Numbered from the stretch's first letter, positions 4,732 through 64,000 are shown. The stretch: 64,000 nt of DNA from Actinomycetota bacterium (GCA_046732465.1 JBKPND010000029.1:17123-81122), one strand, 5' to 3'. The notes: generated from the letters alone by a model not told the origin. Numbers and translations are program-made.

Positions 4732-6078
4732 ATGAGACCTGAGGTGCGGTACGCAAGGAATGGTGAGGTCGCCATCGCGTACGCAGTGGTCGGCACGGGT
4801 CCAGACGATCTCGTTTACGTCTCGCCCTACAACAACCTGGACATTGTCTGGGAGAACCCGCTCTACGAGCGCTTCCTGCGCAGGCTCTCCTCGCTCGCGA
4901 GGCTGATTGTGATCGACCGGCGCGGGACCGGGGTCTCCGACCGTTACTCCCCGGATGATCTCCCGCCGCTGGAGGACCTCGTCGACGATCTCGGCGCCGT
5001 GCTCGAGGACGCGGAGTCGGAGCGTGCCATTCTGTTCGGCTTCTCGGATGCGGGCGCGCTCTGTGCGATGTTCGCCGCCGCCCGTCCCGAGCGCGCCTTG
5101 GGACTGGTGCTGTACTCGACCGCCGCGCGGGGCACCCGGGCGCCCGATTATCCCTGGCAATGGTCAGAACGGGAGTGGCAGGACTATCTCGCGGGGGTAA
5201 AGGCCGGTTGGGGAACCCAGGAATATGCGGTGCAGTCGCTGGCCTTCAACAACCCGAGCCTCGCGCACGATGAGCGACAGGTGGCATGGTGGGGCCGCTT
5301 CCAGCGCCTGTCTGCGAGCCCGAGCGCTCTATATGCGCAGGAGCAAGTCTTCCGCGAGCTGGACATTCGGGGGGTGCTGCCCGCGATCAACGTTCCGACC
5401 CTCGTGTTGCATCGAACTGGGGACATGGTCGAGCCGGTCGGCGCAGGCCGTTACCTGGCGCGCGAGATTGCCAGCGCCGAATACTTCGAGCTGCCCGGGG
5501 CGGACCACTTTCCGTGGGCCGGGGACCAAGATTCCCTGATCGCCGAGGTCGAGCGCTTCGTCGACATGGTCAGCCGCGAGGAGCACGAAACCTTCGATCG
5601 CATCCTCGCGACGATCGTGTTCACCGACATCGTCAACTCGACTGGGCAGGCCGCCGCAATGGGCGACCGTCGATGGCGGGTGGTTCGCGAGGAACACGAC
5701 CGGGTGACGCGCGCTCAGCTGGCTCGCTTCCGCGGTCGTGAAGTCGAAAGCCTGGGCGACGGGTATCTCGCGGTCTTCGACGGCCCCGCCCGCGCAGTCC
5801 GCTGCGCCCGGGCGATCTGCAGGTCGATGAGCCGGCACGGGGTTGAGCTTCGGGCAGGGCTGCACACCGGCGAGGTCGAGCCGCATGGCGAGGGCTACTC
5901 GGGACTCGCGGTGACCATCGGATCACGGGTTGCAGACCTGGCTGGACCCGGAGAGGTTCTCGTCTCCTCCACGGTGAAGGATCTGGTTGTCGGGTCGGCC
6001 CTCTCCTTCGAGGATCGCGGGATGCACAACCTGAAGGGCGTGCCTGACGCCTGGCACCTCTACGCGGTGGCGAACTGA
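4732..6078 (+). CDS. Alpha/beta-hydrolase / class III adenylate-guanylate cyclase fusion (LipJ-like architecture)
   Basis: The N-terminal half starts VRYARNGEVAIAY and contains GFSDAG. The C-terminal half reads TIVFTDIVNSTGQAAAMGD..GDGYLAVFDGPARAVRCA..GLHTGEVE. Confidence 0.85.
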   Translation: MRPEVRYARNGEVAIAYAVVGTGPDDLVYVSPYNNLDIVWENPLYERFLRRLSSLARLIVIDRRGTGVSDRYSPDDLPPLEDLVDDLGAVLEDAESERAILFGFSDAGALCAMFAAARPERALGLVLYSTAARGTRAPDYPWQWSEREWQDYLAGVKAGWGTQEYAVQSLAFNNPSLAHDERQVAWWGRFQRLSASPSALYAQEQVFRELDIRGVLPAINVPTLVLHRTGDMVEPVGAGRYLAREIASAEYFELPGADHFPWAGDQDSLIAEVERFVDMVSREEHETFDRILATIVFTDIVNSTGQAAAMGDRRWRVVREEHDRVTRAQLARFRGREVESLGDGYLAVFDGPARAVRCARAICRSMSRHGVELRAGLHTGEVEPHGEGYSGLAVTIGSRVADLAGPGEVLVSSTVKDLVVGSALSFEDRGMHNLKGVPDAWHLYAVAN

Positions 6079-6102
6079 GGTCGGGGGTCACGCCGCTGTT
6101 TG

Positions 6103-6181
6103 TCGGCTGGGAGCCGAGGGGTCGCGGGTTCGAATCCCGTCTCGCCACTAGCCAAGGGCCCTCTGAAAAGAAGGCCCTTGG
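6103..6181 (+). repeat. Second tRNA-Pro(GGG)-like 3' fragment fused to a GGGCCC hairpin (copy C)
   Basis: TCGG-CTGGGAG-CCGA GGGGTC GCGGG-TTCGAAT-CCCGT CTCGCC-A is followed by CTAGCC and the hairpin at 6152-6181, which has one stem mismatch. It is a direct repeat of 4669-4716. Confidence 0.6.
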
Positions 6182-6190
6182 TGTGCTGGG

Positions 6191-7993
6191 CTAGAACAGC
6201 ATCGTCAGCTCGTTGACCCCCGCGGACGTCCTCGAGCTGAGCGAGTAGTCGCCGTTCTCAAAGATCCGCATCATCGGCGAGTTGCCAAGCATTACGTCGG
6301 CGGTCAGGCCTCGTGCGCCGTGCTGGCGGGCGTACTCGACAAGTCCCCGATGGAGGATTCCCCCGAGGCCAGCGCCCTGCCACTCGGGGTCGACCATATA
6401 CGCCACCTCTGCCAGCCCCGTAGCCGGGCTGAGGTAGTAACAGCTCGCCGCGACGATCCTTTCGTGCGCCGACGGCCCGACGACCGCGGCGAACGCCATC
6501 TCCTCTTCGTAGTCGACGCTGCACAGATACTGGGCCATCGTGTCGGTGAGCGAGGCCAGCTTCTGAAGGAACCTGGTTTCGACGTCCTCCTCGCTGAGCC
6601 GATGGAAGAGCTCCTGCATCGCGGCCGCGTCGCTCGTGCGCGTCGGGCGCAGCAGCACCGAGCGACCGTCGCGCAGCTGCACATCGCGGATCGCGTCCTC
6701 CGGGTAAGCAGTGCGGCTGTGCAGCTGCTGTCGCTCCCCGACGAGCCCCCGCTGGATGGCCGCGTCCAGCAACTCGTCTCTTTCGACGGGATGCGCGATC
6801 TCGATCAGGGCGACGGCTCGCTCGGACAGCGAGCGGCCAAACAAATACGCGGTGCCGTACTCAGTGATGACCCAGTGGACGTCGGCGCGGGGGATCGCAA
6901 CGGCCTCACAGGGGTCGAGCTCGGCGGTGATCGCGGATCGACCTGCCGGCGTGCGCGAGGTCAGGCAGATGATCGCGGTTCCGCCGGGCGAGGCGAGCGC
7001 GCCGCGGTGGAACGCCGGCCCGGTTGACACCCCCCCGTAGAGCTCACCGTCGAGACTTTCGGTGGACACCTGACCCGTGAGGTCGATCGTGAACGCCTGC
7101 GTGATCGACACCATGCGCTCGTTGCTCGCGATCACCGTCGGATCGCAGATCTCCTCGATCGGACGAAAGGCGAACCTGGGGTTGTCGTCGACTAGGTCGT
7201 AGAGGCGCTTAGTGCCCATCGCCCAGCTGGTCGAGACCGGGCCCGTGACGACGCCGCCATCGACCAGGTCGACGAGCGGCTCCGTGATCACGTCCGAGTG
7301 GATGGCCAGCTCGCGCCGGTTTGCCAGGTGAGCGAGCATCTCGTTCGGTACGCGGCCAACGCCGATCTGGAGGGTGGATCCGTGATCGATGAGGCGGGCG
7401 GCGTAGCGGGCGATCTGCTCGGCGACCTGCCCAACGGGGGGATGCAGGTATTCGATCACCGGCGTCTCGACCGGCACGAAGCTCGCGATGCGGTCGACCG
7501 GGATCAGGCTGTCGCCGGCGGTGCGCGGCATGTCCGGGTTGACCTCCGCTATGACGGTGTCCGCGGCCATGGCCGCGGCCTTTGTCACGTCAACGGAGAC
7601 GCCCAGGCTGCAGGTGCCGTCCGCATCGGGTGGCGCGACTTGCACCATCGCGACGTCCAGCCGCATCTGTCCAGTCTCGAAGAGGCGCGGGACGTCGGCG
7701 ACCGAGAGCGGCAGGTACTCCACCTGTCGCATCGGCCCCTGCAGCGCGCGCATATCGCGGCCCACGTAGAAGACGCGATGCCGATAGTTCGTCTTCGGGG
7801 GCTGGTCGGTCCCGAACCGGTCGGTGAGGAAATGCACCAGCGTGACCCCTGGTCTGTTGAGCTCCTCGAGGGTCTGCACCAGGCTGCGCGGAGTGGCGCA
7901 CGCGGTGCCGATGAACACCTTGTCCCCAGGCCGGACGACGGAGACGGCCTCTGCGGCCGAAACCTGGCGGTCATGCCAATCGGATGGGGGCAT
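6191..7993 (-). CDS. Acetyl-CoA hydrolase/transferase-family domain fused to a C-terminal GNAT acetyltransferase
   Basis: The N-terminal ~420 aa resemble CoA-transferases (VFIGTACATPRSL, GVGRVPNE). The C-terminal ~170 aa are GNAT-like (WQGAGLGGILHRGLVEYAR). The start is moved to ATG 7993 because the ORF-track extension to 8188 reads through the repeat arm. Confidence 0.75.
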   Translation of the reverse strand: MPPSDWHDRQVSAAEAVSVVRPGDKVFIGTACATPRSLVQTLEELNRPGVTLVHFLTDRFGTDQPPKTNYRHRVFYVGRDMRALQGPMRQVEYLPLSVADVPRLFETGQMRLDVAMVQVAPPDADGTCSLGVSVDVTKAAAMAADTVIAEVNPDMPRTAGDSLIPVDRIASFVPVETPVIEYLHPPVGQVAEQIARYAARLIDHGSTLQIGVGRVPNEMLAHLANRRELAIHSDVITEPLVDLVDGGVVTGPVSTSWAMGTKRLYDLVDDNPRFAFRPIEEICDPTVIASNERMVSITQAFTIDLTGQVSTESLDGELYGGVSTGPAFHRGALASPGGTAIICLTSRTPAGRSAITAELDPCEAVAIPRADVHWVITEYGTAYLFGRSLSERAVALIEIAHPVERDELLDAAIQRGLVGERQQLHSRTAYPEDAIRDVQLRDGRSVLLRPTRTSDAAAMQELFHRLSEEDVETRFLQKLASLTDTMAQYLCSVDYEEEMAFAAVVGPSAHERIVAASCYYLSPATGLAEVAYMVDPEWQGAGLGGILHRGLVEYARQHGARGLTADVMLGNSPMMRIFENGDYSLSSRTSAGVNELTMLF

Positions 7994-8089
7994 CGGGCTC
8001 GTGCCGTCGAGAGTCTTCGGAACGATCGTAGAGCTCAGATGTTCTTCATGTAGCCACCGGGTATGAACGAGCCGACATTGGCCTCCGGT

Positions 8090-8193
8090 GGTACCAGCCG
8101 TGGTACCGAACTGAGAGAAACTGAGCTGATGTCGGCTCATCTCAGCGTGCCTGGCGTCGCTCAGCATGAGCCCACCGAACGGCTTCAAGGCTT
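8090..8193 (+). repeat. 104-nt conserved arm, copy 2
   Basis: See 4467-4570. The hairpins are retained at 8090-8107 and 8123-8138. The second hairpin carries an A-to-G change that keeps pairing as a U-G wobble. Confidence 0.8.
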
Positions 8194-8277
<84 letters not shown>

Positions 8278-8357
8278 AAAGCCCTGGGGAACCCAGGGCT
8301 ACCGCCCGGCCTCGCTTAGGACACGTGCGGGGTGGGTTGCGGGTTACGCGGTCCGCG

Positions 8358-8876
8358 ATGCAGGGAAGGACCGACCCACACGTGAGCAGTGACAAGCTCC
8401 TATCGATCTATCTCAATGATCATCTCGCAGGCGCGACACTCGGAGTCGAGCTGGCCGGACGCAGCCGCGCCAGCAACGAGGGCACTCCTTTGGGTGACTT
8501 TCTCGACCGTCTCTTGCGCGAGATCGAGACGGACCGCGAGACGCTGAAAAGGCTGATGCGGGAACTGGGGATTCAACCCGATCGGGTCAAGGCTTACGGG
8601 GCCTGGACGCTGGAAAAGCTCGGGCGCTTGAAGCTGAACGGCCAGTTCAAGGGCTACTCGCCACTGAGCCGCCTGATCGAGCTCGAGAGCCTGTATCTCG
8701 GGATCACCGGAAAGCAAGAGATGTGGATCACTCTGCAGCGCACGCTGACCAACCAGGTACCGGGGGTTGACTTTGGAGAGCTGCAGCGCAGGGCGGAACG
8801 CCAGGCGGCGGAAGTTGAGGAGCACCGCGTCGAGGCTGCGGAGGCGGCGTTGGCGTCGCCGGGGCAGGGCGAGTAG
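8358..8876 (+). CDS. Hypothetical protein (helical)
   Basis: The ORF has plausible composition (LSIYLNDHLAGATLGVELAGR..). The start is set at the first ATG after the repeat. I do not recognise a family. Confidence 0.5.
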   Translation: MQGRTDPHVSSDKLLSIYLNDHLAGATLGVELAGRSRASNEGTPLGDFLDRLLREIETDRETLKRLMRELGIQPDRVKAYGAWTLEKLGRLKLNGQFKGYSPLSRLIELESLYLGITGKQEMWITLQRTLTNQVPGVDFGELQRRAERQAAEVEEHRVEAAEAALASPGQGE

Positions 8877-9160
8877 GTCCCGTGCTGCAGAGCTGAGTGA
8901 AGTTGGCGTTAATGATCGGCACCTGCTCGATTCGCTCCCCCGTTCGTGGGTATTGAACGACTCCCGCTCGGCTTCGGCGTGCATCTCCCCCTTCACGCCG
9001 GAGGAACGCGGGAGAAGGAGTCGCCGAGGGGGGCGAAGGCGGGACAGGTCTCCCCTCGGCACTCCATCGCTCAGGAGACATTTGCCGCGGGCGCGGAGCG
9101 TCCCGGATTTGCGCTCACCCGAGCGGTTTCTCGTGATCTGCGGACGGGAACCAATGGGCC

Positions 9161-9943
9161 ATGTTCCGACCGGCAGCCCCTCTTGAAGCGGCACTGCGCC
9201 AGCGGAGTGTCCTCGGGGAGACCTCCCACCGGCCCTGGCCGCTCCCGGATCGGCCCTGGTTCATGGGTCAGACCTGGCGCCATCTTCTCTTCGCGCATTG
9301 GCAGGTTGAGGCGGAACGCCTGGCCGAGCGCATTCCGCCGCAGCTCCCGCTCGACACGCGTGACGGCTCGGCCTGGATCGGGGTGACGCCCTTCGGCGTC
9401 GAGGGGCTCCGGCTACGCCGCTTCCCTCCGGCACCGATCGTCTCCCAATTCCTCGAGGTCAACGTCCGCACCTACGTGACGGTCGACGGCAAGCCCGGGA
9501 TCTACTTCCTCAGCCTGGATGCGAGCAGCCGGCTCGCGGTCGCCGTTGCGCGCAGGACCTATCGCCTGCCGTACTTCCGCTCGCAGATCTCACTCGACGC
9601 CCAGGATGGCGGCTTCTTCTTCCGGAGCGAGCGCGTCTCGAAGGACGGCGAGCCGGCCGGGCTCGCGATCGCCTACGCCCCGACCGGCCGGCGGCTCCCG
9701 CAAGACGATTCGCTCGCGCGCTTCCTGGCGGAGCGCTACTGCCTCTACACGCTGTCCGAGGGCGGCCGCGTCCACCGGGCCGACATTCATCATCCGCCGT
9801 GGCCGCTTCAGGAGGCGAGTGGGTTGGTCGAGCGCAACTCGATGGCCTCGCCGTACGGGTTGGAGTTCTCCGGCGATCCGATCCTTCATTTCTCCGAGCG
9901 CCAGGACGTGGTGCTCTGGAACCTCGAGCCCACTGACGAGTGA
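9161..9943 (+). CDS. DUF2071 (YqjF-like) family protein
   Basis: RPWFMGQTWRHLLFAHWQV, GVTPF and NVRTYV match DUF2071 as I recall it. Confidence 0.65.
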   Translation: MFRPAAPLEAALRQRSVLGETSHRPWPLPDRPWFMGQTWRHLLFAHWQVEAERLAERIPPQLPLDTRDGSAWIGVTPFGVEGLRLRRFPPAPIVSQFLEVNVRTYVTVDGKPGIYFLSLDASSRLAVAVARRTYRLPYFRSQISLDAQDGGFFFRSERVSKDGEPAGLAIAYAPTGRRLPQDDSLARFLAERYCLYTLSEGGRVHRADIHHPPWPLQEASGLVERNSMASPYGLEFSGDPILHFSERQDVVLWNLEPTDE

Positions 9944-10036
9944 GCTTCGGCGAGGAGGGCTGGCGAGGCCCACGTTGTGAGGACGCGGGATCCGGGCAGG
10001 CTGAACCAGGACCCACGACCAGCAAAGGAGATCGGA

Positions 10037-10255
10037 ATGGAAGAGCAGGAGGAAGGGGCGCAGGTGAAGCGGGATGAGTCGGACGCGGAGCGCGGATCGG
10101 ACGAGCTGCCGGATCCCGATCGAGAGGGGCCAACCCCCGACCAGGAAAGGGAGGACCAGGAGTCACATGGGGACCGAAGCCCCCCGCCGGAGGACCTGAC
10201 GGATGATCCCGCCTACGAGCCCGAGGGCCACGTCAAAGGGATCGAAGGCGGCTAA
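10037..10255 (+). CDS. Small highly acidic, probably disordered protein (72 aa)
   Basis: ATG 10037 is preceded by AAAGGAG 7 nt upstream. The sequence is rich in D, E and P (MEEQEEGAQVKRDESDAERGSDELPDPDREG..) and sits 22 nt upstream of the EEP gene. Confidence 0.5.
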   Translation: MEEQEEGAQVKRDESDAERGSDELPDPDREGPTPDQEREDQESHGDRSPPPEDLTDDPAYEPEGHVKGIEGG

Positions 10256-10277
10256 GACCGCGTCTGCCGAAAGCCAG

Positions 10278-11126
10278 GTGCGCCTCGTCAGCTGGAACGT
10301 GGCTCGGCGCAGTTCGCGTCTGGTCGAGCAGGCCGCTGCGCTAGGCGGCCGCGATCCCGACGTGGTCGCGCTCCAGGAGATCACCAGCCGCACGCTGCCC
10401 TTATGGAGAGCGGCGCTCGAGACGATCGGAATCAGTCACGTGCGGGCGTCCTTGGACGGGGCCGATCCGGCGCGAGAGCCGGCGGCCCGGCGCAGCACGG
10501 GAGTGCTCCTCGGCTCGCGCACGCCGCTCAGAGCCGCCGCGGCCCTGCCCGTGCCCTGGCCGGAGACCGCCGTCGCAGCCGTCTCGCACTCCGCGGGCAC
10601 CGGCGTTGAGCTCCACTGCGTCCACGTCCCGAACGCCGCCAACGGCTGGGTCAAGGTCCGAACGCTGGAGGCGATTCGCCACGGGCTGGCAAGCGCCGGC
10701 CGGCGTCCGCGTGTGCTCTGCGGAGATCTCAACACCCCCCGCCGCGAGCTTCCCGACGGGGAGGTGATCTCATTCGCGCGCGACTCGCGAGGCCGCCTGC
10801 GACCGGAGCGCGGGCCCGAGTGGGACGAGGCCGAGCTTGGCGTCGTTCCAGGGCTCCGTGAGCTCGGTTACCGCGATGCGTTTCGAGCCCTGCACGGCTA
10901 CGCGCAGCGCGAGCCGAGCTGGACCTGGCGGCGGATCGCCGGCCACGACGGCGGCTGGCGTCTGGATCACATCTTCGCCTCGGAGGACCTTCGGCCGGCT
11001 TCAGCTGCCTACCACCACGCATGGCGCGAGCAGGGGCTCAGCGACCACTCAGCGCTCGAAGTCGACCTGCATAGGCTCAGATCAGGACGCTCGCAACGAT
11101 CGCGAGCGGCGTCCCGATCAGGCTGA
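10278..11126 (+). CDS. Endonuclease/exonuclease/phosphatase (EEP) family protein
   Basis: VRLVSWNVARR, VVALQE and a C-terminal SDHSALEVDL are EEP catalytic motifs. GTG 10278 is chosen as the start, while the ORF track starts at 10203. Confidence 0.8.
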   Translation: MRLVSWNVARRSSRLVEQAAALGGRDPDVVALQEITSRTLPLWRAALETIGISHVRASLDGADPAREPAARRSTGVLLGSRTPLRAAAALPVPWPETAVAAVSHSAGTGVELHCVHVPNAANGWVKVRTLEAIRHGLASAGRRPRVLCGDLNTPRRELPDGEVISFARDSRGRLRPERGPEWDEAELGVVPGLRELGYRDAFRALHGYAQREPSWTWRRIAGHDGGWRLDHIFASEDLRPASAAYHHAWREQGLSDHSALEVDLHRLRSGRSQRSRAASRSG

Positions 11127-11949
11127 CGCGAGCGAAGAAACGCTCGAATGGCCCGCGGTAACCGACGCTCTCCATCAGCAAGAGGGCTCCGAGATGCCCG
11201 AGGTTGATCAGGAAGAATCCGCCGGCCAAGAGATAGCGCAGCGCACACCCACCGGCGAACTGAACGATCGGCCCGCCCTGTTCCTCTTGTTTGTCGGGGC
11301 AGTCAGCCGCGAGCAGGATGAGCGCGATCGTTCCGAGGATCGCGACCGCGATCCCCAGCGTGTCTTGCTTCCGCAGCGGCGGAAGGTTCCTGGAGATCCG
11401 CCGACCCTCCTCGCGGCGCTTTGCCCCTGCCGTAGCCGTTTCGCGATTCTCAACCCGCTCTTGTTTCCCACGGCCCGTCACCAGCAGCTCTGTCGCGGGC
11501 TGGTCGAACTCGCGGTTGACCCGGTCCAGAAGCTCCGTTTCCGCGTAGCTCCGCTCTTTGTCGCGCGCATGGGTAAGGACGAGGATGCGCTCCGCCCCAT
11601 GCTTGAGAAGCTCGTCGCTGATCGCCGTCACCGGATCGGAGTCACCGACCTCCCCGTCGGCGTCGAGACCGACCGAGCGCAGCGCCTCGAGCGAAGCTTT
11701 CAGCCGTTCACGAGCGGGCGGGATCGCCTCATCTACGTCTCCGAGCACCTGCCTCAGCCCGGAGGAAGGAAGGACGGGGCAGACGAGATGTACCTCCGGG
11801 GGGTCGCCGCCAGTCGCGCGATGAACCTCATCAACGACGGCCTGAGCTGCATCACCGGCGATCTCCTCCGTGGCGACGATCAGCACCGAGCGGGTCGATC
11901 CACTCGCTGGGGTGCCACGATCTGCTGAGTTTTCGCCGGTTCCCTCCAT
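11077..11949 (-). CDS. USP-like (adenine-nucleotide alpha-hydrolase-fold) domain fused to a C-terminal multi-pass membrane domain
   Basis: The N-terminus (VLIVATEEI..GDSDPVTAISDELLKHGAERILVLTH) is paralogous to 13040-13465. The C-terminus has about 4 hydrophobic helices. Confidence 0.6.
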   Translation of the reverse strand: MEGTGENSADRGTPASGSTRSVLIVATEEIAGDAAQAVVDEVHRATGGDPPEVHLVCPVLPSSGLRQVLGDVDEAIPPARERLKASLEALRSVGLDADGEVGDSDPVTAISDELLKHGAERILVLTHARDKERSYAETELLDRVNREFDQPATELLVTGRGKQERVENRETATAGAKRREEGRRISRNLPPLRKQDTLGIAVAILGTIALILLAADCPDKQEEQGGPIVQFAGGCALRYLLAGGFFLINLGHLGALLLMESVGYRGPFERFFARVSLIGTPLAIVASVLI

Positions 11950-12062
11950 CGCGCCGGTGTACCCGAATCCGATCCAGATCGAAACACCGGCGGGTGGGCG
12001 CTTCGAACCGCTCGAGAGATACCCGGGCGGCTAAGCCGCGCCCGAGCGGGTAGCAGCGATGC

Positions 12063-12383
12063 ATGTGGTATCCCAGCCTGTCGCAGCTGCGAGACACAGA
12101 CAGGGCTGTCGGGAAAATCAACGACGGTGGCGGTCCGCGCCGTCTCCGCTTGGTTCGGGTGGGGCACCCCCAGGGCCTCTTTCTGCCCAGCACCGAGGCG
12201 ACGGTCGAGGTCGAGACGGTAAGCGGGAAGGTCGTCCGACTAAGGCCTCAGCTCCCGGTGCCCTTCCTCTACGCCTGGACATACAGACTTGCTCGTCGCC
12301 TTGGTCTTCCCCTTGCCTCGACCCTCGATCCCGAGGACCTAAGTGTCGAAGTGCCCGTGCCCGGGTGGGTTTGGCCGGACTGA
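12063..12383 (+). CDS. Hypothetical protein (weak call)
   Basis: The ORF has non-junk composition in its C-terminal two thirds (TEATVEVETVSGKVVRLRPQLPVPFLYAWTYRLARRLGLP). No motif is recognised and the start is unclear. Confidence 0.3.
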   Translation: MWYPSLSQLRDTDRAVGKINDGGGPRRLRLVRVGHPQGLFLPSTEATVEVETVSGKVVRLRPQLPVPFLYAWTYRLARRLGLPLASTLDPEDLSVEVPVPGWVWPD

Positions 12384-12449
12384 TCCGCGCTTGACCCGCT
12401 GCCGGGTCCGTCGCGCACGATGACAATGAAGGCGGCGTAAGATGGCGGC

Positions 12450-12785
12450 ATGGCATCCGAGCGCGAGGAGCGGATTGCCCGGAACGAGGCGATGTTCCGC
12501 GTCGCCAACGAGCGGATGGCGGACTGGGAGGAGCAGCACGCGAGTAGTGCGGTCGAGCCCTACTTCTGCGAGTGCGCGAATCCCGAATGCGGCGAGCATG
12601 TGGATCTGCGCAAGGCCGACTACGAGCGGGTCCGCTCGGACTCGCGCCGCTTCGTGATCGTCCCCGGTCACGAGGCACCGGACGTGGAGAAGGTGATCGA
12701 GCGAAACGAGGGCTGGGCGATCATCGAAAAGGCGCCCGAGGTGACCGGCGTGGTTGAGGAACTCGACCCCCGCCGCGAGGGCTGA
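12450..12785 (+). CDS. Hypothetical protein with a CxCxxxxC segment
   Basis: The ORF has clean composition (RIARNEAMFRVANERMADWEE..YFCECANPECGEHVDL..). I do not recognise a family. Confidence 0.55.
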   Translation: MASEREERIARNEAMFRVANERMADWEEQHASSAVEPYFCECANPECGEHVDLRKADYERVRSDSRRFVIVPGHEAPDVEKVIERNEGWAIIEKAPEVTGVVEELDPRREG

Positions 12786-12867
12786 GCGTTATGCGGCGCC
12801 CTGGGACCTACGCGGCGGTCAATTCGGCTAGCTATCCCTAAAACGAACGGCCCCCACCCCCACGGTC

Positions 12868-12950
12868 TGGCGGATCCGTATCGGGGCGTGGCGACAAACG
12901 AATCGGGCCCCCGCTACTAGCCAAGGGCCCTCTGAAAAGAGGGCCCTTGG
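12868..12950 (+). repeat. att-like copy E: short arm plus tRNA-fMet T-loop-to-3'-end fragment plus hairpin
   Basis: The segment reads GGCGGATCCG..ACGAATC-GGGCCCCCGCTA-CTAG-CCAAGGGCCCTCTGAAAAGAGGGCCCTTGG. The hairpin at 12921-12950 is identical to copy A. Confidence 0.75.
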
Positions 12951-13039
12951 TGCTTGTTGCGTCGTCACACGCGGCCCTCCTCTCGGGCAGTATTCACCTC
13001 GTCCAACTCGGCGCGGCCGATGCCACAATCACCACTGGG

Positions 13040-13465
13040 ATGACTTCCCCAGCGTTTACGCGCGTCCTGGTTGTGGCTCACCAGACCGCGGCGACACCGA
13101 GACTGCTTGACGCGGTTCGTGCCCGCGCCCGCCGGTCTCGCTGCACATTCACGCTCCTGGTGCCGCGTCCCTACTGGGACCCGGACACCGAGGTGGCCGC
13201 GGCCACACTCGAGCTGGCCATCCCGCTGCTCCGCGAGGCCGCTGGCGGCCACGTCGAAGGGATCGTCGGCGACAGCGATCCTTTCGTCGCCGTGCAGCAG
13301 GCGATCGAGCGAGGCGGGTTCGACGAGATCATTATCTCCACCCTCCCGGCACGGGTCTCGCGCTGGCTCCGTCGCGATCTCCCCCACCGCGTGGAGGCGC
13401 TCGGCCTCCCTGTCACTGTTGTCACCGCCCAGCAGTCCGAGCGCGCCGTCTCCGACGCTCGTTGA
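13040..13465 (+). CDS. USP-like stand-alone domain protein
   Basis: VLVVAHQTAATPRLL..GDSDPFVAVQQAIERGGFDEIIISTLP is paralogous to the N-terminal domain of 11077-11949. ATG 13040 is chosen as the start. Confidence 0.6.
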   Translation: MTSPAFTRVLVVAHQTAATPRLLDAVRARARRSRCTFTLLVPRPYWDPDTEVAAATLELAIPLLREAAGGHVEGIVGDSDPFVAVQQAIERGGFDEIIISTLPARVSRWLRRDLPHRVEALGLPVTVVTAQQSERAVSDAR

Positions 13466-13486
13466 GCTACATAGGAGGACGGTTAT

Positions 13487-14374
13487 TCACCCGCGCGACG
13501 CGGCGTCGAAGCGCCGATCGGCGAGCGCCAGGAAAGCCTTCCCCGCTGGGGACGTGACGGCCTCGTTCCACGCCAGGGCTGTTCGTCGCTGAAGGTGTGG
13601 GCGGGTGATCTCCAGAGCGGCGACGTCGGCACCCTTCGCCGCCGAGGAGGGAAGGACCGCGACGCCGAGCCCTTCGGCGGCAAGCTCGACCAGCGATCCG
13701 AGGTCGTCGGCCTCCGCCGTGATCCGGGGATCGAAGCCGGCGTCGCGGCAGGCGTTCTCGAGCACCATGCGCAGGCCGCTGCCGCGGACGAGCGTGATCA
13801 TCGGCTGTTCGCGCAACTGGGCGAGGGTGACGGTTCTGCGGCGGCTGAGCGGATCGCCGCGGCGGACCACGAGGACCAGCGGCTCGGTGGCGAGCACGCT
13901 GGTACGGATCTGGGGCGGCAGTGGCTGCACCCCCACCCCGACGACTCCGGTGTCGAGGTCGCCGTTGGCGACGGCCTCGAGGAGCGGCTCGTTGTGCTCC
14001 TGGGTGACCGAGATCTCGACCGCGGGATGGGCACGATGGAAGTCGCCGAGCGCTTCCGCGAAGCGATGGTCCACGGGCCCCGCGACGCCCACCGTGAGCC
14101 GCCCGTGGAGCATGCCGCGCAGGGAGGCGATCTCATCGCGGCCTCGCCCGGCTGCGGCGAGCGCCGCGCGGGCGTGCGGCAGGAGCGCCTCGCCGGCGGC
14201 GGTGAGCCTGACCAGGCGTCGGTCGCGAAGGAAAAGCGGCTCCCCGAGCTCGCGCTCAAGGCGACGGATCTGCGCGCTGACCGCGGGCTGGGCCACCGAG
14301 ACGCGGATCGCCGCGCGGGTGAACTGCCCTTCCTCGGCGACCGCGACGAAGTAGGAGAGCTGCCGCAGGTCCAT
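13487..14374 (-). CDS. LysR-family transcriptional regulator
   Basis: MDLRQLSYFVAVAEEGQFTRAA..QPAVSAQIRRLE forms the HTH and a LysR substrate-binding domain follows. The start is moved to ATG 14374, and the ORF-track N-terminal extension is rejected. Confidence 0.9.
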   Translation of the reverse strand: MDLRQLSYFVAVAEEGQFTRAAIRVSVAQPAVSAQIRRLERELGEPLFLRDRRLVRLTAAGEALLPHARAALAAAGRGRDEIASLRGMLHGRLTVGVAGPVDHRFAEALGDFHRAHPAVEISVTQEHNEPLLEAVANGDLDTGVVGVGVQPLPPQIRTSVLATEPLVLVVRRGDPLSRRRTVTLAQLREQPMITLVRGSGLRMVLENACRDAGFDPRITAEADDLGSLVELAAEGLGVAVLPSSAAKGADVAALEITRPHLQRRTALAWNEAVTSPAGKAFLALADRRFDAASRG

Positions 14375-14380
14375 AACGAT

Positions 14381-14395
14381 TTCTTCTGATAAGAA
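14381..14395. promoter_or_regulatory. Candidate LysR box (T-N11-A type dyad)
   Basis: TTCTT-CTGAT-AAGAA lies 7 nt upstream of the LysR start, in the divergent intergenic region. Confidence 0.4.
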
Positions 14396-14423
14396 TAAGC
14401 GACCTGTCTTTGACTTATGACTG

Positions 14424-14756
14424 TTGCGGCGTAACGTCGTGGACATGGCTGATGGGCAGCTCAACAGGTCCTCACGCCCTCCTCGGTGGCTGGCCGCGGT
14501 GGCGATGACGCTGGGGGCGTGGCTGGTGGCGTTCCTCGTCGTGACGGGGCTCCTCACCCTCCTCGGCGACGAGCTGGGGTCGCTGCCGCTCGGCCTACGC
14601 GTGTTGGTGATCAGCGGTGTCCTCGTGGCCCTGATGGTCAACCTGGTGATGCCCGTCCTGAACGTCGCTGTCGCTCGCTGGCTGCGGGACCCCCGCTCGG
14701 CGCCCGCTTCCATCGGCCGGCCCCGGGCGCATTCCGGAGGCGAAAGCCGTGCCTGA
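14424..14756 (+). CDS. Small membrane protein (about 3 TM), divergent from LysR
   Basis: Hydrophobic segments are LAAVAMTLGAWLVAFLVVTGLL, LRVLVISGVLVALMVNLVMPVL. Confidence 0.5.
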   Translation: MRRNVVDMADGQLNRSSRPPRWLAAVAMTLGAWLVAFLVVTGLLTLLGDELGSLPLGLRVLVISGVLVALMVNLVMPVLNVAVARWLRDPRSAPASIGRPRAHSGGESRA

Positions 14757-14893
14757 GCCCCCAGAACTCGAGGCACACACAGGGGTTGGCGCGTATTCGG
14801 CCTTCAGATACGCCTTCGCCGTGGTGGGCTGAGGGTTTGGCCTGGAGACGAGGCTGCCCCCCAGGTCGGCGTCTACCGCGACGGACTACCGCA

Positions 14894-15436
14894 TCACTGC
14901 ATCACCCCACGAAGCCGGTCACGCCGCGCCGCCGACAGCTCCTTTGGCTTCACGAACGACACCAGACCGGCGCTTCCGGGCGCCAGCTCGCGCCAGCTGC
15001 CGTTGAGCTCCAACGTCGCGAGCGCCGCGGTCGGAAACTTGCTCCTCACTCGCGCGACCTCAGCGCCGCCGCGGGCGAGGCTCAGCGTGAGGTCCTGGAT
15101 CCCGGGGTTGTGGCCGATTAGCATCACGGCCTTCACCTCGTCCGGAACCTCGCGCAGCACCTCGAGGAGGGCGGCCGCCGAGCCCGCGTAGAGCTCGGGC
15201 TCGATCCGGACCTCGGCATTCTCGCCCATGCCCGGTGCGATCCGCTCAAACGTCTGGCGGGTGCGCCGCGATGGCGAGCACAGCACCAGGTCGGGCGCGA
15301 TTCCCTTCCGCCGCAGATGCTCCGCTATGAGCTTCGCGGCGCGGCGACCGCGAGGCGCCAGGGGGCGGTCGTAGTCGACAAGCGTGGGGTCGTCCCAGCT
15401 CGACTTGGCGTGGCGCAGCAGATAGAGCCGTTTCAT
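14894..15436 (-). CDS. Histidine phosphatase family protein (SixA-like)
   Basis: MKRLYLLRHAKSSW..RPLAPRGRR carries the RHG motif, and HNP occurs later. The start is set at ATG 15436. Confidence 0.8.
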   Translation of the reverse strand: MKRLYLLRHAKSSWDDPTLVDYDRPLAPRGRRAAKLIAEHLRRKGIAPDLVLCSPSRRTRQTFERIAPGMGENAEVRIEPELYAGSAAALLEVLREVPDEVKAVMLIGHNPGIQDLTLSLARGGAEVARVRSKFPTAALATLELNGSWRELAPGSAGLVSFVKPKELSAARRDRLRGVMQ

Positions 15437-15714
15437 TCCCACTGCAGAATGGCGGGAGCCGACGGCCACAGGCAAGGGGGGACCAGTCGCTGTTGCTCCT
15501 CGCGCGTTGCAGGATCCCTGGGTTCGGTGAGCGATGACTCCAGATCTCGAGCGCATTCCCAGTTAGCGCCTCCTTGGCGCCAACGCGCCGCAGCCCGGAC
15601 AAGCCCAGGTCACCGACCGTTACCTGACAGTCGACCCTTCTTCATGGAGACGAAGAGCGGCTATTTCGGCGAGCACAGAAGTGCTGCGGACTCTCGCGAA
15701 GGGTGCAGCCTGGT

Positions 15715-16743
15715 CTATGAGCGAAGCGTTCGTGGAAGCCCGAGGTGTCCGAGGATGGCGGTGTCGGGGGGGAAGGTGGTGATCGCCGCGATCCGATCTC
15801 CCTCGAGCGTCAACACGATCAGTGAATAGGCCCGGGCGATCGGCGCCTGCGGGTCAGGGACGTAGCAGCCCAACGCCGGCTGGGTGTTGGCGCGAGTTGG
15901 CACGATAAGCAGCTTCCCGCGCAGCTCCGCGCGGTAGCCGAGGAAGGCGGCGATCGCCTCGTGTCCCTGGTACTCGAGCGGCCAGGGCGGCATCGTGAGC
16001 AGGGCGTCGTCGGTGAGCAGGGCGACGACCTCCTCGACGTCACCGCGCGCGAACGCGTCGGCGAAGCGCCCCACCAGTTCGCGCTCCTGCGCGGAGTTCG
16101 GCCGCGGTGCTTGGTCGCGGTCGGCGGCCGGCAGCCGCTCTCCGAGAGCCGCGCGGGCCCGCTGCAGGGCACCCTTGACCGCCGCCTTGCCGGTGTCGAG
16201 CATCTCGGCGACCTCCGCGGTGCTGAAGCCGAGGACGTCGCGCAGTACGAGCGCCACGCGCTGGCGGGGCGGCAGGTGCTGGAGGGCGACGATGAACGAA
16301 AGCTCGATCGACTCCCTGGCCTCGTAGCGTGCCGCCGGTCCGGGTGCGCGGTCGGGGATGTCCTCGAGCAGGACGTCGGGGTAGGGCTCGAGCCAGATCG
16401 GCTCGAACCTGCGTGTGGGCTCAGGCGCCTGATCCATTGCTGGTACCGCTGGTACCTGCCTGGGGCGGCGCGATCGGGCGCGCAGCGCGTTCAAGCAGCG
16501 GTTGGTCGCGATCCGGTACAGCCAGTTGCGCACGGATGCGCGGCCCTCGAACGCCTCGAGGCCCCGCCACGCGGCCAACAGCGTCTCTTGGACCGTGTCC
16601 TCTGCGTCCTGCAGCGAGCCGAGGATGCGGTAGCAGTGCAGCTGGAGCTCGCGCCGGTGGGGTTCGGTGAGCTCGCGAAACGCCTCCTCGTCGCCCGCGC
16701 GAGCCCGCGCGAGCGTGACCTCGCTTAGGGCGTCGCCCGGCAC
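15715..16743 (-). CDS. ECF sigma factor with a C-terminal SnoaL/NTF2-like extension (TIGR02960-like)
   Basis: Sigma-2 (AEDTVQETLLAAWRGLEAFEGRASVRNWLYRIATNRCLNALR) and sigma-4 (RQRVALVLRDVLGFSTAEVAEML) regions are followed by an extension of about 130 aa. The start is uncertain; GTG 16743 is the closest upstream start codon. Confidence 0.8.
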   Translation of the reverse strand: MPGDALSEVTLARARAGDEEAFRELTEPHRRELQLHCYRILGSLQDAEDTVQETLLAAWRGLEAFEGRASVRNWLYRIATNRCLNALRARSRRPRQVPAVPAMDQAPEPTRRFEPIWLEPYPDVLLEDIPDRAPGPAARYEARESIELSFIVALQHLPPRQRVALVLRDVLGFSTAEVAEMLDTGKAAVKGALQRARAALGERLPAADRDQAPRPNSAQERELVGRFADAFARGDVEEVVALLTDDALLTMPPWPLEYQGHEAIAAFLGYRAELRGKLLIVPTRANTQPALGCYVPDPQAPIARAYSLIVLTLEGDRIAAITTFPPDTAILGHLGLPRTLRS

Positions 16744-16897
16744 GGGCTTCTCGCATCGGTATGTCCTGTCGCGGTCATCACCGGTAAGGACACCGGCTTG
16801 CCCAGGGATGGACCGGCCGTTCCGTTCTCGTCGTCGCCGGTGTCTCAACGGACATGGACCCGAAGACGCGTTTGCAACGCGACTACCTAGGAGGGTA

Positions 16898-18583
16898 ATG
16901 ATGGAATCGTCCGCACCGGTCGTGCACCCGGCCCCCTCGCCCGTTCTCGATCCCCGCCGGTGGTGGGCGCTGGCCCTCCTCTGCGGCGCCTTCTTCATGG
17001 TGCTCCTCGACGCCACGATTGTGCTCGTGGCGCTGCCCTCGATCCAGGCGGACCTCGGCTTCTCGGAGCGAGGCCTGCAGTGGGTGCTGAGCGCCTACGC
17101 GCTCACCTTCGGCGGCCTGCTCTTGCTCGGAGGACGCGCGGCCGACCTGCTCGGACGCCGTCGCGTGTTCATGGCCGGTGTCCTCTTCTTCACCGCCGCG
17201 TCGCTCATGTGCGGGCTCGCCTGGTCGCAGGCGGCGCTCCTTGCGGCCCGGGTCGTCCAGGGCATCGGCGCCGCGATCATGACCCCGACCGCGCTCTCGA
17301 TCATCTCGACCACCTTCCCCGAGGGCCCCGAGCGGAACAAGGCGCTTGGGATCTGGGGTGGGCTCGGCGGCGTCGGCGCCACCACGGCGTGGCTGATCGG
17401 CGGCCCGCTCGTCGACGGCCCCGGCTGGGGGTGGATCTTCTTCATCAACATCCCCCTCGGCCTGGCCGCGCTTGCGCTGTCGCCCGTGCTCCTGCGGGAG
17501 AGCCGGGGCGCGCTGACGCGACGGAGCTACGACCCCGCTGGGGCGCTCACCATCACCGGCGCGATCGTCCTGCTCGTCTATGCGCTGGTCGAGGCGCCCA
17601 ACGTCGGCTGGGGTGACGTCCAGACGATCCTCCTGTTCGCCGGCTCGGCCATCCTCCTCGCTGCCTTCGCGCTGATCGAGGCGCGCCACCCCGAGCCCCT
17701 TGTGCCGCTCCGCCTCCTCCGATCGCGAACACTCGTCGGGGCGAACGCGGTGATGCTCCTCGTCGGCACCCTCGCCGTCGGCATGCCGTTCGTCCTCACG
17801 CTCTATGCGCAGCAGGTGCTCGGCTACTCGGCCGTCAAGTTCGGAGTCGGTTCGGTCGTTCTCGCAATCACGGTCACGGTGGGGGCGATCGTCGCTCAGG
17901 CGGCGGTCCTCAAGGGCGGCTTCCGCTCGGTCGCCGCGACGGGCATGGCGTTGATGGGCGGGGGGTCACTACTGCTCACCCAGGTCTCCGTGGGCGGCAG
18001 CTACCTCGGCGACATCTTCTTCGGGCTGCTCGTCTTCGGGCCCGGGGTGGGTCTCGCCTTCGTGACCGCCACGGTCGCGGCCCTCGCGGGCGTCGCCGAG
18101 CGCGAGTCCGGGCTCGCCTCGGGCCTCAGCAACACCGCCTTGCAGATCGGCTCGGCACTGGGCGTCGCCATCGTCACGACCGTTGCTGTCTCCCGCTCAC
18201 AGGACTACCTCGCGGCGCACGCAGGCGCAAACCCGCTCGTCGTGCTGAACGAGGGCTACCAGTCGGCCTTCCTGGCCCTCGTCGTGCTGGCCGGGATCGG
18301 CATGGCGCTGGCGCTCGTCCTCCTCGGCCGCCCGCGGAAAGCGCCCGCACGAGCCGCTGGAGCCGGTCCCGGCGACCGGGGCCGCGGAGTGAGGAGAGCG
18401 GTACAGGTTCGACTACCAGCGAAAGGAACGGAGCAATGGGAAAGATCGTCATCAGCGAGAACGTCACGCTCGACGGAGTCATCGAGGATCCTTCCGGTGA
18501 CGAGGGCTTCAAGCACGGCGGCTGGGTCGGCAGGGTCACGGACCGCGAAGAGGCCGGCAAGGTACTGCTCGACGAGACGCTGA
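16898..18583 (+). CDS. MFS transporter, DHA2 (EmrB/QacA, 14-TM) family
   Basis: WWALALLCGAFFMVLLDATIVLVALPSI and LGGRAADLLGRRRVF are present. AGGAGG precedes ATG 16898/16901. The Arg-rich tail overlaps the next gene. Confidence 0.85.
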   Translation: MMESSAPVVHPAPSPVLDPRRWWALALLCGAFFMVLLDATIVLVALPSIQADLGFSERGLQWVLSAYALTFGGLLLLGGRAADLLGRRRVFMAGVLFFTAASLMCGLAWSQAALLAARVVQGIGAAIMTPTALSIISTTFPEGPERNKALGIWGGLGGVGATTAWLIGGPLVDGPGWGWIFFINIPLGLAALALSPVLLRESRGALTRRSYDPAGALTITGAIVLLVYALVEAPNVGWGDVQTILLFAGSAILLAAFALIEARHPEPLVPLRLLRSRTLVGANAVMLLVGTLAVGMPFVLTLYAQQVLGYSAVKFGVGSVVLAITVTVGAIVAQAAVLKGGFRSVAATGMALMGGGSLLLTQVSVGGSYLGDIFFGLLVFGPGVGLAFVTATVAALAGVAERESGLASGLSNTALQIGSALGVAIVTTVAVSRSQDYLAAHAGANPLVVLNEGYQSAFLALVVLAGIGMALALVLLGRPRKAPARAAGAGPGDRGRGVRRAVQVRLPAKGTEQWERSSSARTSRSTESSRILPVTRASSTAAGSAGSRTAKRPARYCSTRR

Positions 18584-62137: not shown

Positions 62138-63448
62138 GTGTCGTTCGTCCGCAGAAGCTCGATATCCGCCGTCATCGCAGCTCTGACCGTCGTGCTGCTC
62201 GGGGTCGCGGTCATGCCGAGCTCCGCCTCGGCCCTGAGCCGCAGCCAGGCGCGCTATCTGGCCGCCGCCAACAAGGGCGTCAAGCAGACCCACCGCTGGT
62301 GGAGTCGCGGCCTGCACTGGTATCGCGCGGTGCTGGACCAGGGGAGGGTGGCCTCGCTGTGGGGGATCGTGCCCCTGTTCGAGGCATTGAACGGACTGCA
62401 GACGGCCCAGCCCTCGGAGCGGCACCGCCAGCAGCTCAATCGCTTCGCCCGAGGCGCGGAGCGCTACGTGAACCCGACCCTCAAGCCGGTTCCCGGCTTC
62501 GGTCCCAAGCCCGGCCAGCACAATCCCGGGAAGACCACCTGGTTCGATGACAACGGCTGGTGGGGCCTCGCCTTCCTCGACGCCTATCGCGCCACGGGCA
62601 ATCCGCGCTACCTCTACGACGCGGAGGTCGCCCAGCGATTCATCAGCGTCTCGGGCTGGGATACCACGCCGGGCCGGCCCGGCGGCATCTGGTGGAACAC
62701 CAACCACAGCTTCTACGCGGGCGAGTCCCTCGCCGGAGGGACGCTGCTTTCCGCCCGCCTCTACGCGGTCACCCACGAGCAGGCCTATCTCGACGACGCC
62801 CTCAAGTTCATCGCCTGGGGGGACGTCTGGCTGACCGACCCGGCCACGGGGCTCTACGCACGGCTCCGCAAGCCGAAGACCTACAAGACGGGCAAGCCCG
62901 GGCCGGTCACCCCGCCGAGCGGCGCGGCCGCGACGGCTGACGCCAGGGCGCTGAAGGCCAACCCCGATGAGGCGGCGAAGCTCGAGGCATCCGGCCAACA
63001 GGTCCCCGCTCCGGGTGAGGCCGCCGCGGCGTTCAACAACTACCCGGCCTTCGCCCCGTCACCGATGCCCTACGTCAACGGGCCGATGATCCTCGCCCAC
63101 CGGATCATCTGCGAGCAGACGGGCAGACAGTCATTCTGCGACCGCGCCGCCGACCTGGCGGCGAGGACGCTCCAGGTCTATCAGCGCTTCTGGATGGGCC
63201 CGCAGTTCGACTTCTGGTACGTGCGGACCATGCTCGAGTTCGCGCGCCTCGACAACAATGGCGACTGGTACGGGATCGTGCGGCGCAACGCCCGCAGCGC
63301 GCTGCACCGGGCCACCGCCCGAAATGGCCTCTACCTGCGCACCTGGTACGGGAAGAAGGCCTCCCGGGCGAATGCGCCGAAGGGCAGCATTCAGCTGCAT
63401 GCGGCGAACGCGGCGCTGTTCGCCTGGATGGGAGCGCTCGGCCGCTAG
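62138..63448 (+). CDS. Glycoside hydrolase family 76-like (alpha-1,6-mannanase-like) secreted protein
   Basis: A signal peptide is followed by WFDDNGWWGLAFLDAYRATGNPRYL and GGIWWN. The start is GTG. Confidence 0.7.
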   Translation: MSFVRRSSISAVIAALTVVLLGVAVMPSSASALSRSQARYLAAANKGVKQTHRWWSRGLHWYRAVLDQGRVASLWGIVPLFEALNGLQTAQPSERHRQQLNRFARGAERYVNPTLKPVPGFGPKPGQHNPGKTTWFDDNGWWGLAFLDAYRATGNPRYLYDAEVAQRFISVSGWDTTPGRPGGIWWNTNHSFYAGESLAGGTLLSARLYAVTHEQAYLDDALKFIAWGDVWLTDPATGLYARLRKPKTYKTGKPGPVTPPSGAAATADARALKANPDEAAKLEASGQQVPAPGEAAAAFNNYPAFAPSPMPYVNGPMILAHRIICEQTGRQSFCDRAADLAARTLQVYQRFWMGPQFDFWYVRTMLEFARLDNNGDWYGIVRRNARSALHRATARNGLYLRTWYGKKASRANAPKGSIQLHAANAALFAWMGALGR

Positions 63449-63479
63449 GGCCGAGACCGTTCAGCGACTGCGGTCGGTG

Positions 63480-63614
63480 CTACGGCCCCGTGCCGGCGAG
63501 CGCCAGCGCCAGTACCGCCACTGCTATCCCGAAGACCGCGCCGATCCCGTAGGCGAGGACGAGCCGTCCGCCCCGGATTCGATCGGTCGCCAGGTGATCG
63601 ATCAACGTGCTCAT
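63480..63614 (-). CDS. Single-pass membrane micro-protein (44 aa) directly downstream of the riboswitch
   Basis: Own translation gives MSTLIDHLATDRIRGGRLVLAYGIGAVFGIAVAVLALALAGTGP*. An SD (AAGAGAGG) lies about 5 nt upstream. Confidence 0.5.
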   Translation of the reverse strand: MSTLIDHLATDRIRGGRLVLAYGIGAVFGIAVAVLALALAGTGP

Positions 63615-63631
63615 GCCAACCTCTCTTTCTC

Positions 63632-63757
63632 GGGCCTACGGGGTTAGCTGTCGGGCTCGCGCCGAAAGAGTGCGCTACGGCTGTGCCGATTCGCCCACGG
63701 AGCTGCGCTCCAATTTGGTTCCCCCGTTCGCGTCGCACACGACGCGATTCGGCAGGT
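63632..63757 (-). promoter_or_regulatory. Cyclic-di-AMP riboswitch (ydaO/yuaA class)
   Basis: The minus strand reads GCCGAAUC-[hairpin]-GAACGGGGGAACCAAAUUGG..GGGCGAAUC..AGCCCGACAGCUAACCCCGUAGGC. This matches the conserved blocks of the ydaO motif as I recall them (CGGGGGA.CCA, GGGGUGAAUC, CCG.CAGCUAACC.CGUA.GC). Confidence 0.75.
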
Positions 63758-63910
63758 GGATTAGCGGGGACCGTACCCGATTTCGCTGAAGCCAAACGAC
63801 CCTTCGGCAGCGAACTACGGCTTCGCCATATAGCCGCGGCCACAAGCGACCGCTCTCAATAACCGCTCGGGGCTGCGCCCCTCGCTCAGGATGGAGCGGT
63901 CTGGTGGCCG

Positions 63911-64000
63911 CTAAGCGGCCTTGCCGAGCTTGCCGTCGCGCACGAGCTCCTCGCGGACCTTGCGCACGTGGCCGGTGGAGCAGTTGGCGCGCTTGGCGAT
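63911..64000 (-). CDS. Partial CDS (3' end only); C-terminal HTH-like segment
   Basis: Own translation gives ..IAKRANCSTGHVRKVREELVRDGKLGKAA*. The stop is embedded in the GGCCGC-TAA-GCGGCC hairpin. Confidence 0.35.
   Translation of the reverse strand: MAKRANCSTGHVRKVREELVRDGKLGKAA

Follow-up and report, generated by a model that had tools for sequence, protein, structure and literature searches.

The 64,000-nt stretch of Actinomycetota DNA analysed here (GCA_046732465.1 JBKPND010000029.1:17123-81122, hereafter the window) carries on its minus strand a cyclic-di-AMP (c-di-AMP) riboswitch of the ydaO/yuaA class, which probably has as its only sense-strand cistron a 44-amino-acid (aa) tail-anchored membrane microprotein, in a module confined, as sampled, to uncultured Solirubrobacterales. 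The RNA itself is unremarkable: its class is well known, and any annotation that uses Rfam would pick it up. The sensor is known and the mechanism likely so; it is the target that is new and unusually minimal.

A covariance-model scan (cmscan) of the entire window against Rfam 15 gave two above-threshold matches, one a tRNA and the other RF00379, the c-di-AMP (ydaO/yuaA) riboswitch. The RF00379 match, a check that the first-pass annotation had proposed, lies at 63618-63764 (-) with 77.2 bits and E 3.5e-16, the gathering score being 38. It spans the whole model untruncated (positions 1-134 of 134) and ends 3 nt before the ATG at 63614. The conserved ydaO blocks that the same annotation had read on this strand are all where it placed them and in the right order: GCCGAAUC at 63753-63746, GAACGGGGGAACCA, GGGCGAAUC, and AGCCCGACAGCUAACCCCGUAGGC ending at 63634. 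The closing helix P1 pairs 63753-63751 with 63636-63634 (-).

Comparison with relatives shows the structure to be maintained. From an alignment of 29 leaders, RNAalifold recovered the canonical nested ydaO helices, seven in number, without guidance, and 12 of the 30 pairs in its structure carry double-sided compensatory changes. Once the loop-tail pseudoknot discussed below is added, 97.4% of pairing cells are compatible with the fold, versus 37-57% for slid partners, and none of 500 shuffles reached the observed value. The blocks that form the ligand pocket are near-invariant (two GAAUC motifs, ACGGGGGA and AGCCCG..CAGCUAACC), and RF00379 scores among relatives at more than 40 loci lie between 55 and 84 bits. 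The minimum-free-energy z-score of the single sequence, -0.13, is uninformative for such a GC-rich RNA. The aptamer is a bona fide, structurally covarying member of RF00379; binding of two c-di-AMP molecules by this RNA is predicted, and is visible only through the conserved pocket blocks.

The open reading frame (ORF) behind the aptamer, the micro-ORF MSTLIDHLATDRIRGGRLVLAYGIGAVFGIAVAVLALALAGTGP, occupies 63480-63614 (-), from the ATG at 63614 to a TAG at 63482-63480, as originally called. It is backed by homologues, by the ratio of nonsynonymous to synonymous substitution (dN/dS), by an AlphaFold2 (AF2) model and by RNA contigs. A search of 5.8 billion protein clusters (90% identity) returned 211 homologue clusters for the single query, and a profile raised this to 321; they are 38-48 aa long and nearly all exactly 44 aa, and the profile, which listed mostly the same close clade, gained little. 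Every organism-labelled homologue comes from a metagenome-assembled genome (MAG) of the Solirubrobacterales, and several had already been called as genes by the NCBI annotation pipeline. An exhaustive hidden Markov model search of a second library, 1.84 billion protein representatives at 50% identity, found 14 clusters at that identity and brought in a dozen much more divergent ones, 38-48 aa long, which have M-T-x-L-[IV]-[DE]-x-L-[AS]-x-[DE]-R-[IV] in common ahead of a transmembrane (TM) segment.

Selection on these sequences is at the level of the protein. Across 30 species-level genomes, three or four synonymous codons are in use for each of the invariant residues R12, R17, L18, G25, G29, A33 and A36 (CGA, CGC and CGG for R12; CGG, CGA, CGT and CGC for R17). 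In the micro-ORF frame the Nei-Gojobori dN/dS is 0.21 (N-terminal half, 0.087; TM half, 0.29), as compared with 1.79 and 2.87 in the other two frames, and variable sites fall 20/15/35 on the three codon positions. Because synonymous codons are exchanged and the low dN/dS is specific to this frame, selection acts on the peptide and not on RNA structure or an overlapping frame. The 44-aa ORF is thus a gene under protein-level purifying selection, and it is presumably translated, judging by that selection, the Shine-Dalgarno (SD) sequence and the start codon. Codons 1-6 (AUG AGC ACG UUG AUC GAU, 63599-63614) have far fewer synonymous changes than the remaining codons, and the synonymous rate, dS, is 0.46 in the N-terminal half versus 0.87 in the TM half; the low synonymous variation of the first six codons suggests an extra RNA-level constraint near the initiation region. 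Two long ORFs that overlap the micro-ORF, at 63445-63843 (-) (132 aa) and 63258-63647 (+) (129 aa), were rejected as high-GC artefacts, the other sense-strand frames having dN/dS of 1.8-2.9.

Riboswitch and micro-ORF keep company wherever the two could be compared, with a single exception described below. RF00379 stands directly upstream of the ORF in all six metagenome contigs that code for the identical protein and at all 31 loci from about 30 species-representative Solirubrobacterales genomes, with 3-5 nt between its end and the start codon in related loci. Gene order in this close clade is rigid (GT87(-), 488-aa protein(-), up126(+), riboswitch(+), micro-ORF(+), GH76(-), STAS(-)), so the linkage there could come from synteny alone. 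The divergent lineages, a handful of short contigs from organisms that, like all those considered here, are uncultured, do not share that order. RF00379 is present at the same position, with 55-80 bits, in 10 of the 11 with enough upstream sequence, and a metagenome locus scan with a sub-alignment gave five loci. Beside the micro-ORF in these lineages stand RlmN (on its strand and 30 nt beyond it; L040-L042), an MFS transporter that converges on it and overlaps it, or genes for a CBS-domain protein, a DoxX-like protein or a sulfatase. L037, which diverges most within the close clade, has lost GH76 and kept both riboswitch and micro-ORF. Since the neighbours all differ between lineages, the riboswitch and the micro-ORF are the only unit conserved everywhere, and the co-occurrence that the first-pass annotation had suggested looking for is borne out in differing flanks. 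The family also appears confined to the Solirubrobacterales, because the RlmN beside its most divergent member is 94% identical to a protein from a Solirubrobacterales MAG. At L040-L042 the riboswitch and micro-ORF sit immediately upstream of, and on the same strand as, rlmN, a housekeeping 23S rRNA methyltransferase gene. One bin (MAG MFD04944.bin.1.92) holds two fully syntenic copies of the locus, L017 and L022, and the micro-ORF of L022 is frameshifted into a 93-aa read-through; strain mixture with a long-read indel is a more likely source of this duplication than true paralogy.

The most likely mechanism, by analogy with other members of the class, is translational repression upon c-di-AMP binding, because the class-defining pseudoknot overlaps the SD sequence. 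The loop CUCUUUC at 63664-63670 (-), carried by an invariant hairpin GCGC-A-CUCUUUC-G-GCGC (63675-63659), is exactly complementary to the tail GAAAGAG at 63623-63629 (-), which ends 8 nt short of the start codon in the window and 8-10 nt short across lineages. The SD sequence AGAGAGG occupies 63620-63626 (-), 5 nt before the ATG. In the aligned leaders its AGAG is invariant, as is the second G of its GG doublet, the first G being present in 28 of 29; three distant leaders read GAGGGG or GAGGAG there, and spacing to the start codon is 5-7 nt across relatives. The first-pass annotation had the aptamer ending about 17 nt before a good SD and ATG: the SD and ATG stand, and P1 does end 19 nt ahead of the ATG, at 63634, but the 3' strand of the pseudoknot continues into the SD. 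Because that strand (63629-63623) runs into the SD, a separate expression platform between aptamer and ORF is absent, and a terminator scan found no intrinsic terminator between the two.

The loop-tail helix has 6-8 bp in all lineages, and 96.5% of its cells pair. Where the loop is shortened to the 6-nt CUCUUC, in L040, L044, L053, L054 and L056, the tail is the 6-nt GAAGAG. Shuffling discriminated weakly by pseudoknot length (6.6 vs 5.5 bp), since a pyrimidine loop offers partners to any tail rich in purines. In the crystallised c-di-AMP-bound ydaO RNA (4QLM/4QLN), the complementary loop and tail strands are CUCCUUC and GAAGGAG, and a stable pseudoknot has been described (PMC5393176); given these equivalent strands, the ligand-bound fold appears to include the helix. 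A precedent for its consequence comes from Corynebacterium glutamicum nlpC, whose ydaO switch has no terminator: c-di-AMP there lowers reporter protein and not transcript, and does so for the first cistron only (PMC9960051). Translational action of ydaO switches has likewise been proposed for Streptomyces (PMC8079986). In the present leader, bound c-di-AMP would lock the CUCUUUC/GAAAGAG pseudoknot, occlude the ribosome-binding site and keep the 30S subunit off, so that translation of the microprotein would be off in the ligand-bound state; a drop in c-di-AMP would free the tail and allow the microprotein to be made. In the bacteria in which it has been studied, K+ limitation lowers c-di-AMP, as do hyperosmotic and envelope stress. 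A different anti-SD pairing, of the 5' leader CACCU (63757-63753) with the AGGU in the SD, was also considered. Its ACCU is conserved, but because the AGGC variants in L019, L046 and L052 are uncompensated it was dropped in favour of the loop-tail pseudoknot.

The AF2 model built from the family alignment places helices at residues 2-10 and 15-39, joined by a 4-residue linker, with a pLDDT (the confidence score of the model) of about 95 in the TM helix (15-39) and a mean of 80, in line with the single TM segment originally called. As the hydropathy maximum covers residues 18-42 and R12, R14 and R17 lie on its N-terminal side, the protein is predicted to be N-in, tail-anchored and single-pass, with about four residues outside. 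G25-x3-G29-x3-A33-x2-A36 are near-invariant and line one helix face as a small-xxx-small packing motif, and the cytoplasmic N-terminal segment (TLIDHLATDRIRGGR) is the most conserved part (dN/dS 0.087). Members of the microprotein family have no match in Pfam, NCBIfam or the PDB, even at permissive thresholds. With its 38-48 aa, one TM helix and conservation it is structurally a single-pass microprotein. The N-terminal helix and the small-residue TM face could allow it to pack against a larger membrane protein (a transporter, a channel or an enzyme of the envelope, for example) and modulate it, or to self-associate. Our best guess for its function is a regulatory subunit that packs on a larger membrane protein, or self-associates, at low c-di-AMP. 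The fuller proposal that it is a dedicated c-di-AMP effector, made only at low c-di-AMP and gating or assembling with a transport system for ions or osmolytes or an envelope enzyme, or oligomerising into a conductance, is possible, at clearly less than an even chance.

Transcription of the locus can be followed in assembled soil metatranscriptome contigs, which are unstranded and drawn from mixed communities. Contigs run from the aptamer into the micro-ORF in three assemblies (X2, 63479-63680; X3, 63552-63696; X1, 63549-63650), a fourth has a contig at 63580-63650 with a depth of 47.7 and further contigs reaching 63526 (X5), and coverage of the GH76 body is about zero in these assemblies. The contigs support expression of the micro-ORF without proving it. 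The core at 63627-63688 shows assembler word depths of about 190 to 17,000 in X1, X3 and X4, and this high depth stems from other soil ydaO leaders that share the core and then diverge; fragments of ydaO leaders seem abundant in soil communities, and are perhaps unusually stable RNAs. Because one unstranded contig joins the 3' end of the upstream gene, up126, to the aptamer, read-through from up126 is possible and the two may be co-transcribed.

Several points count against the account given so far. The pseudoknot overlaps the SD by only 4 nt, and the off direction is borrowed from other class members. Its aligned columns show wobble-compatible single changes and the coupled 7-to-6-nt change in length, with no double-sided compensatory substitution, so its support is conservation together with the crystal-structure precedent. 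The metatranscriptome contigs, being unstranded and from mixed communities, could include DNA. No conserved partner gene across lineages was found in the neighbourhoods compared, and the function assigned to the microprotein is pure inference. The exceptional locus, L051, keeps an intact ORF and retains from the aptamer only the 3' end GGCUAACCCCGUCGGCCCAGGAAAGAG, its 5' part being scrambled; no RF00379 match was found at this locus even at E<=10. The microprotein can thus exist without the switch, since the ORF there is intact beside an aptamer remnant. To judge from the remnant, L051 looks like a decayed switch and not an ancestral absence. The locus (3809-4147, member P0126) has a convergent GH76 and a degenerate SD, GAGATGG; its start is probably a TTG, the 48-aa product as called being over-extended at the N-terminus. 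Either the switch has been lost or rearranged there in nature, or the long-read assembly is in error.

Among alternative explanations, the most direct concerns the gene that faces the micro-ORF. The first-pass annotation had reported a convergent GH76 gene downstream, which is present at 62138-63448 (+) (PF03663, E 1.7e-14), and had argued from it that no larger gene could be the target. That holds for sense-strand cistrons but does not cover an antisense effect on the abutting gene. GH76 is downstream and convergent at 30 of the 31 genome loci, the two stop codons are 0-59 nt apart (9 nt or less at 15 of the 31), and in L045 and L049 the micro-ORF overlaps a convergent gene. Given this spacing the micro-ORF transcript must end inside or against GH76, and no intrinsic terminator was found. 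Antisense or transcriptional-interference control of GH76 could then be the output, or part of it, in the window's clade: the riboswitch transcript would have no room to end before GH76, and when the micro-ORF is untranslated, Rho-type polarity would shorten the antisense RNA. The envelope-glycan character of the locus (GT87 of the MptA/B-like kind, GH76) fits the cell-wall theme of actinobacterial ydaO regulons. Yet L037 keeps riboswitch and micro-ORF without GH76, the divergent lineages other than L051 have unrelated neighbours (RlmN, MFS, CBS, sulfatase, DoxX-like), the metatranscriptome contigs are essentially without coverage into GH76, and a translational switch need not alter transcript levels (PMC9960051). 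An antisense-only role would also leave the strong purifying selection on the peptide unexplained, and we consider control of GH76 unlikely. The micro-ORF could instead be a leader or upstream ORF whose translation, and not its product, controls a downstream gene. Same-strand genes do lie close by in some lineages, with RlmN 30 nt away (L040-42), the DoxX-like gene 45 nt (L050) and the sulfatase 168 nt (L046-48). In the window and the 31 related genomes, however, no gene on the same strand comes after the micro-ORF, the downstream genes vary by lineage and one is a housekeeping rRNA methyltransferase, and the sequence, length (38-48 aa) and TM character of the peptide are conserved (dN/dS 0.09-0.29), all of which makes a leader-ORF role very unlikely.

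Two further readings concern the identity of the protein and the state of the RNA. The microprotein might serve a K+ transporter as an accessory subunit, either of the KdpF type, as the first-pass annotation suggested, or analogous to it. The kdpFABC operon of Bacillus thuringiensis is under a c-di-AMP riboswitch, and K+ uptake is so controlled in Firmicutes (PMC6488665). Size and single-TM architecture match as well. None of 18 family members scanned matches KdpF, or any other Pfam family, at E<=10, however, NCBIfam and the PDB likewise return nothing, and none of the more than 40 loci has a kdp gene, or any other gene for a K+ transporter, next to it. To our knowledge KdpF also lacks the conserved cytoplasmic N-terminal segment of about 20 residues seen in the microprotein. 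The suggestion thus finds no backing in profiles or neighbourhoods, and we regard a KdpF-type subunit as quite improbable, although it might be analogous in function. That the aptamer is a relic, no longer binding ligand or regulating, would be in keeping with L051, which shows that decay is possible in the family. It is extremely unlikely in view of the scores of 55-84 bits over more than 40 loci, the helices kept by compensatory substitutions and the near-invariant pocket blocks. The interpretation we retain is the riboswitch with the microprotein as its sole sense-strand product.

The sequences around this unit hold candidates for the start and the end of its transcript. A candidate -10 element of the TANNNT type, TACGGT, lies at 63770-63775 (-), about 13 nt upstream of CCUGCC, and loci both near and far in relationship have a GGTANNNT-type element at that spacing (TACGGT, TAGGGT, TAGCGT, TACTGT, TATGGT). 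Conservation of this candidate at a fixed offset suggests a dedicated promoter, with transcription predicted to begin near 63763, no more than about 10 nt from P1. Some members of the clade have G as the last letter of the hexamer, and a scan for sigma-70 consensus promoters found nothing. L012, L014, L017, L023, L028, L029, L033 and L040 have in common a short CAATAGC-like motif and, after it, a GTTTG/GTTTC block, which lie ahead of the candidate -10 and about 45-50 nt from P1 and are not obvious in the window's own lineage; this could be a -35 region or a regulator site. An inverted repeat, CTCGGCC-ctagc-GGCCGAG, surrounds the GH76 stop codon at 63437-63455 (-) and is a possible bidirectional terminator without a U-tract. 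As a conserved terminator after the micro-ORF it was rejected: the 63455-63437 repeat is not conserved, its 3' arm is GH76 coding sequence and it is absent where the gap is 0-9 nt, and the terminator scan found none there.

Upstream and co-oriented lies up126, a 126-aa gene whose 3' end is at 63909-64000 (-) and which is whole in L001 (6439-6819). It encodes a CxxC...CxxC zinc ribbon and a helix-turn-helix-like C-terminus (weak EutK_C match), and its identity of 82-94% over 31 loci exceeds the conservation of its neighbours; no Pfam, NCBIfam or PDB family matches it. The spacer between up126 and the aptamer is 147 nt in the window's lineage versus about 60-65 nt in most relatives, that is, about 85 nt longer. 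The wider surroundings, seen at L001 3352-8592 and in the window at 62138-63448 and past its end, resemble an envelope mannan locus, with a GT87 mannosyltransferase of the MptA/B family, an unannotated 488-aa protein and GH76 (the alpha-1,6-mannanase family), and STAS, GDSL lipase and ECF sigma factor genes beyond GH76. This envelope-mannan setting may be relevant to the link between ydaO riboswitches and the cell wall in actinobacteria. The tRNA gene in the window, at 1437-1510 (+) (65.7 bits), has the anticodon loop CUCAUAA (CAU: Met/fMet or Ile2 type) and is unrelated.

Described targets of c-di-AMP riboswitches are K+ and amino-acid transporters, osmoprotection genes and kdpFABC, and in Actinobacteria secreted cell-wall hydrolases and Rpf (PMC8079986, PMC9960051, PMC6488665). 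The RNA studied here resembles the ydaO/yuaA class (RF00379; 4QLM/4QLN) in its full-length match, nested helices, loop-tail pseudoknot and position just before a start codon, and differs only in the gene that it precedes, the sole cistron being a 44-aa membrane microprotein. With the switches of C. glutamicum nlpC and Streptomyces rpfA and other hydrolase genes it shares the phylum, the lack of a canonical terminator and a ribosome-binding site complementary to a pyrimidine stretch of the aptamer (PMC9960051, PMC8079986). In those cases the genes under control encode large secreted peptidoglycan hydrolases, nlpC being the first of a seven-gene operon, whereas the present product is a non-enzymatic microprotein outside any operon. 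The B. thuringiensis kdp switch likewise leads an operon with a small single-TM gene, kdpF (PMC6488665), but there kdpF is within a four-gene pump operon under a transcriptional switch, and here there is neither similarity to KdpF nor any pump gene.

Regulatory membrane microproteins such as AcrZ, MgtS, MgtR, Prli42 and KdpF are a functional class and not a homology family. The 44-aa protein is like them in being shorter than 50 aa, in its single TM helix and short conserved cytoplasmic segment, and, presumably, in expression tied to a stress signal, and it has no sequence relationship to them. We know of none of these five that is the sole cistron behind a riboswitch. The novelty claimed by the first-pass annotation is consistent with the searchable full-text literature, in which we found no stand-alone microprotein target of a c-di-AMP riboswitch (the original gene-association table was not covered) and no riboswitch work on Solirubrobacterales.

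c-di-AMP riboswitches are signposts to a regulon, which in Firmicutes have led to K+ and osmolyte transport and in Actinobacteria to cell-wall hydrolases, and over dozens of species and in several genomic contexts this one points to an uncharacterised 44-aa membrane protein. A family of small proteins thereby acquires a well-defined regulatory input, something that few microproteins have. The module is compact, an aptamer of about 150 nt and a 135-nt ORF, which makes it a convenient natural system in which to study c-di-AMP switching at the level of translation alone, and perhaps a minimal part for biosensors. If the microprotein is indeed a dedicated effector, this would be a rare riboswitch with a single microprotein as its whole sense-strand output, and would add a new protein family to the c-di-AMP regulon of the Thermoleophilia. 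The finding suggests an unrecognised part of osmotic or envelope homeostasis in the Solirubrobacterales, an order that is abundant in soil and almost entirely uncultured.

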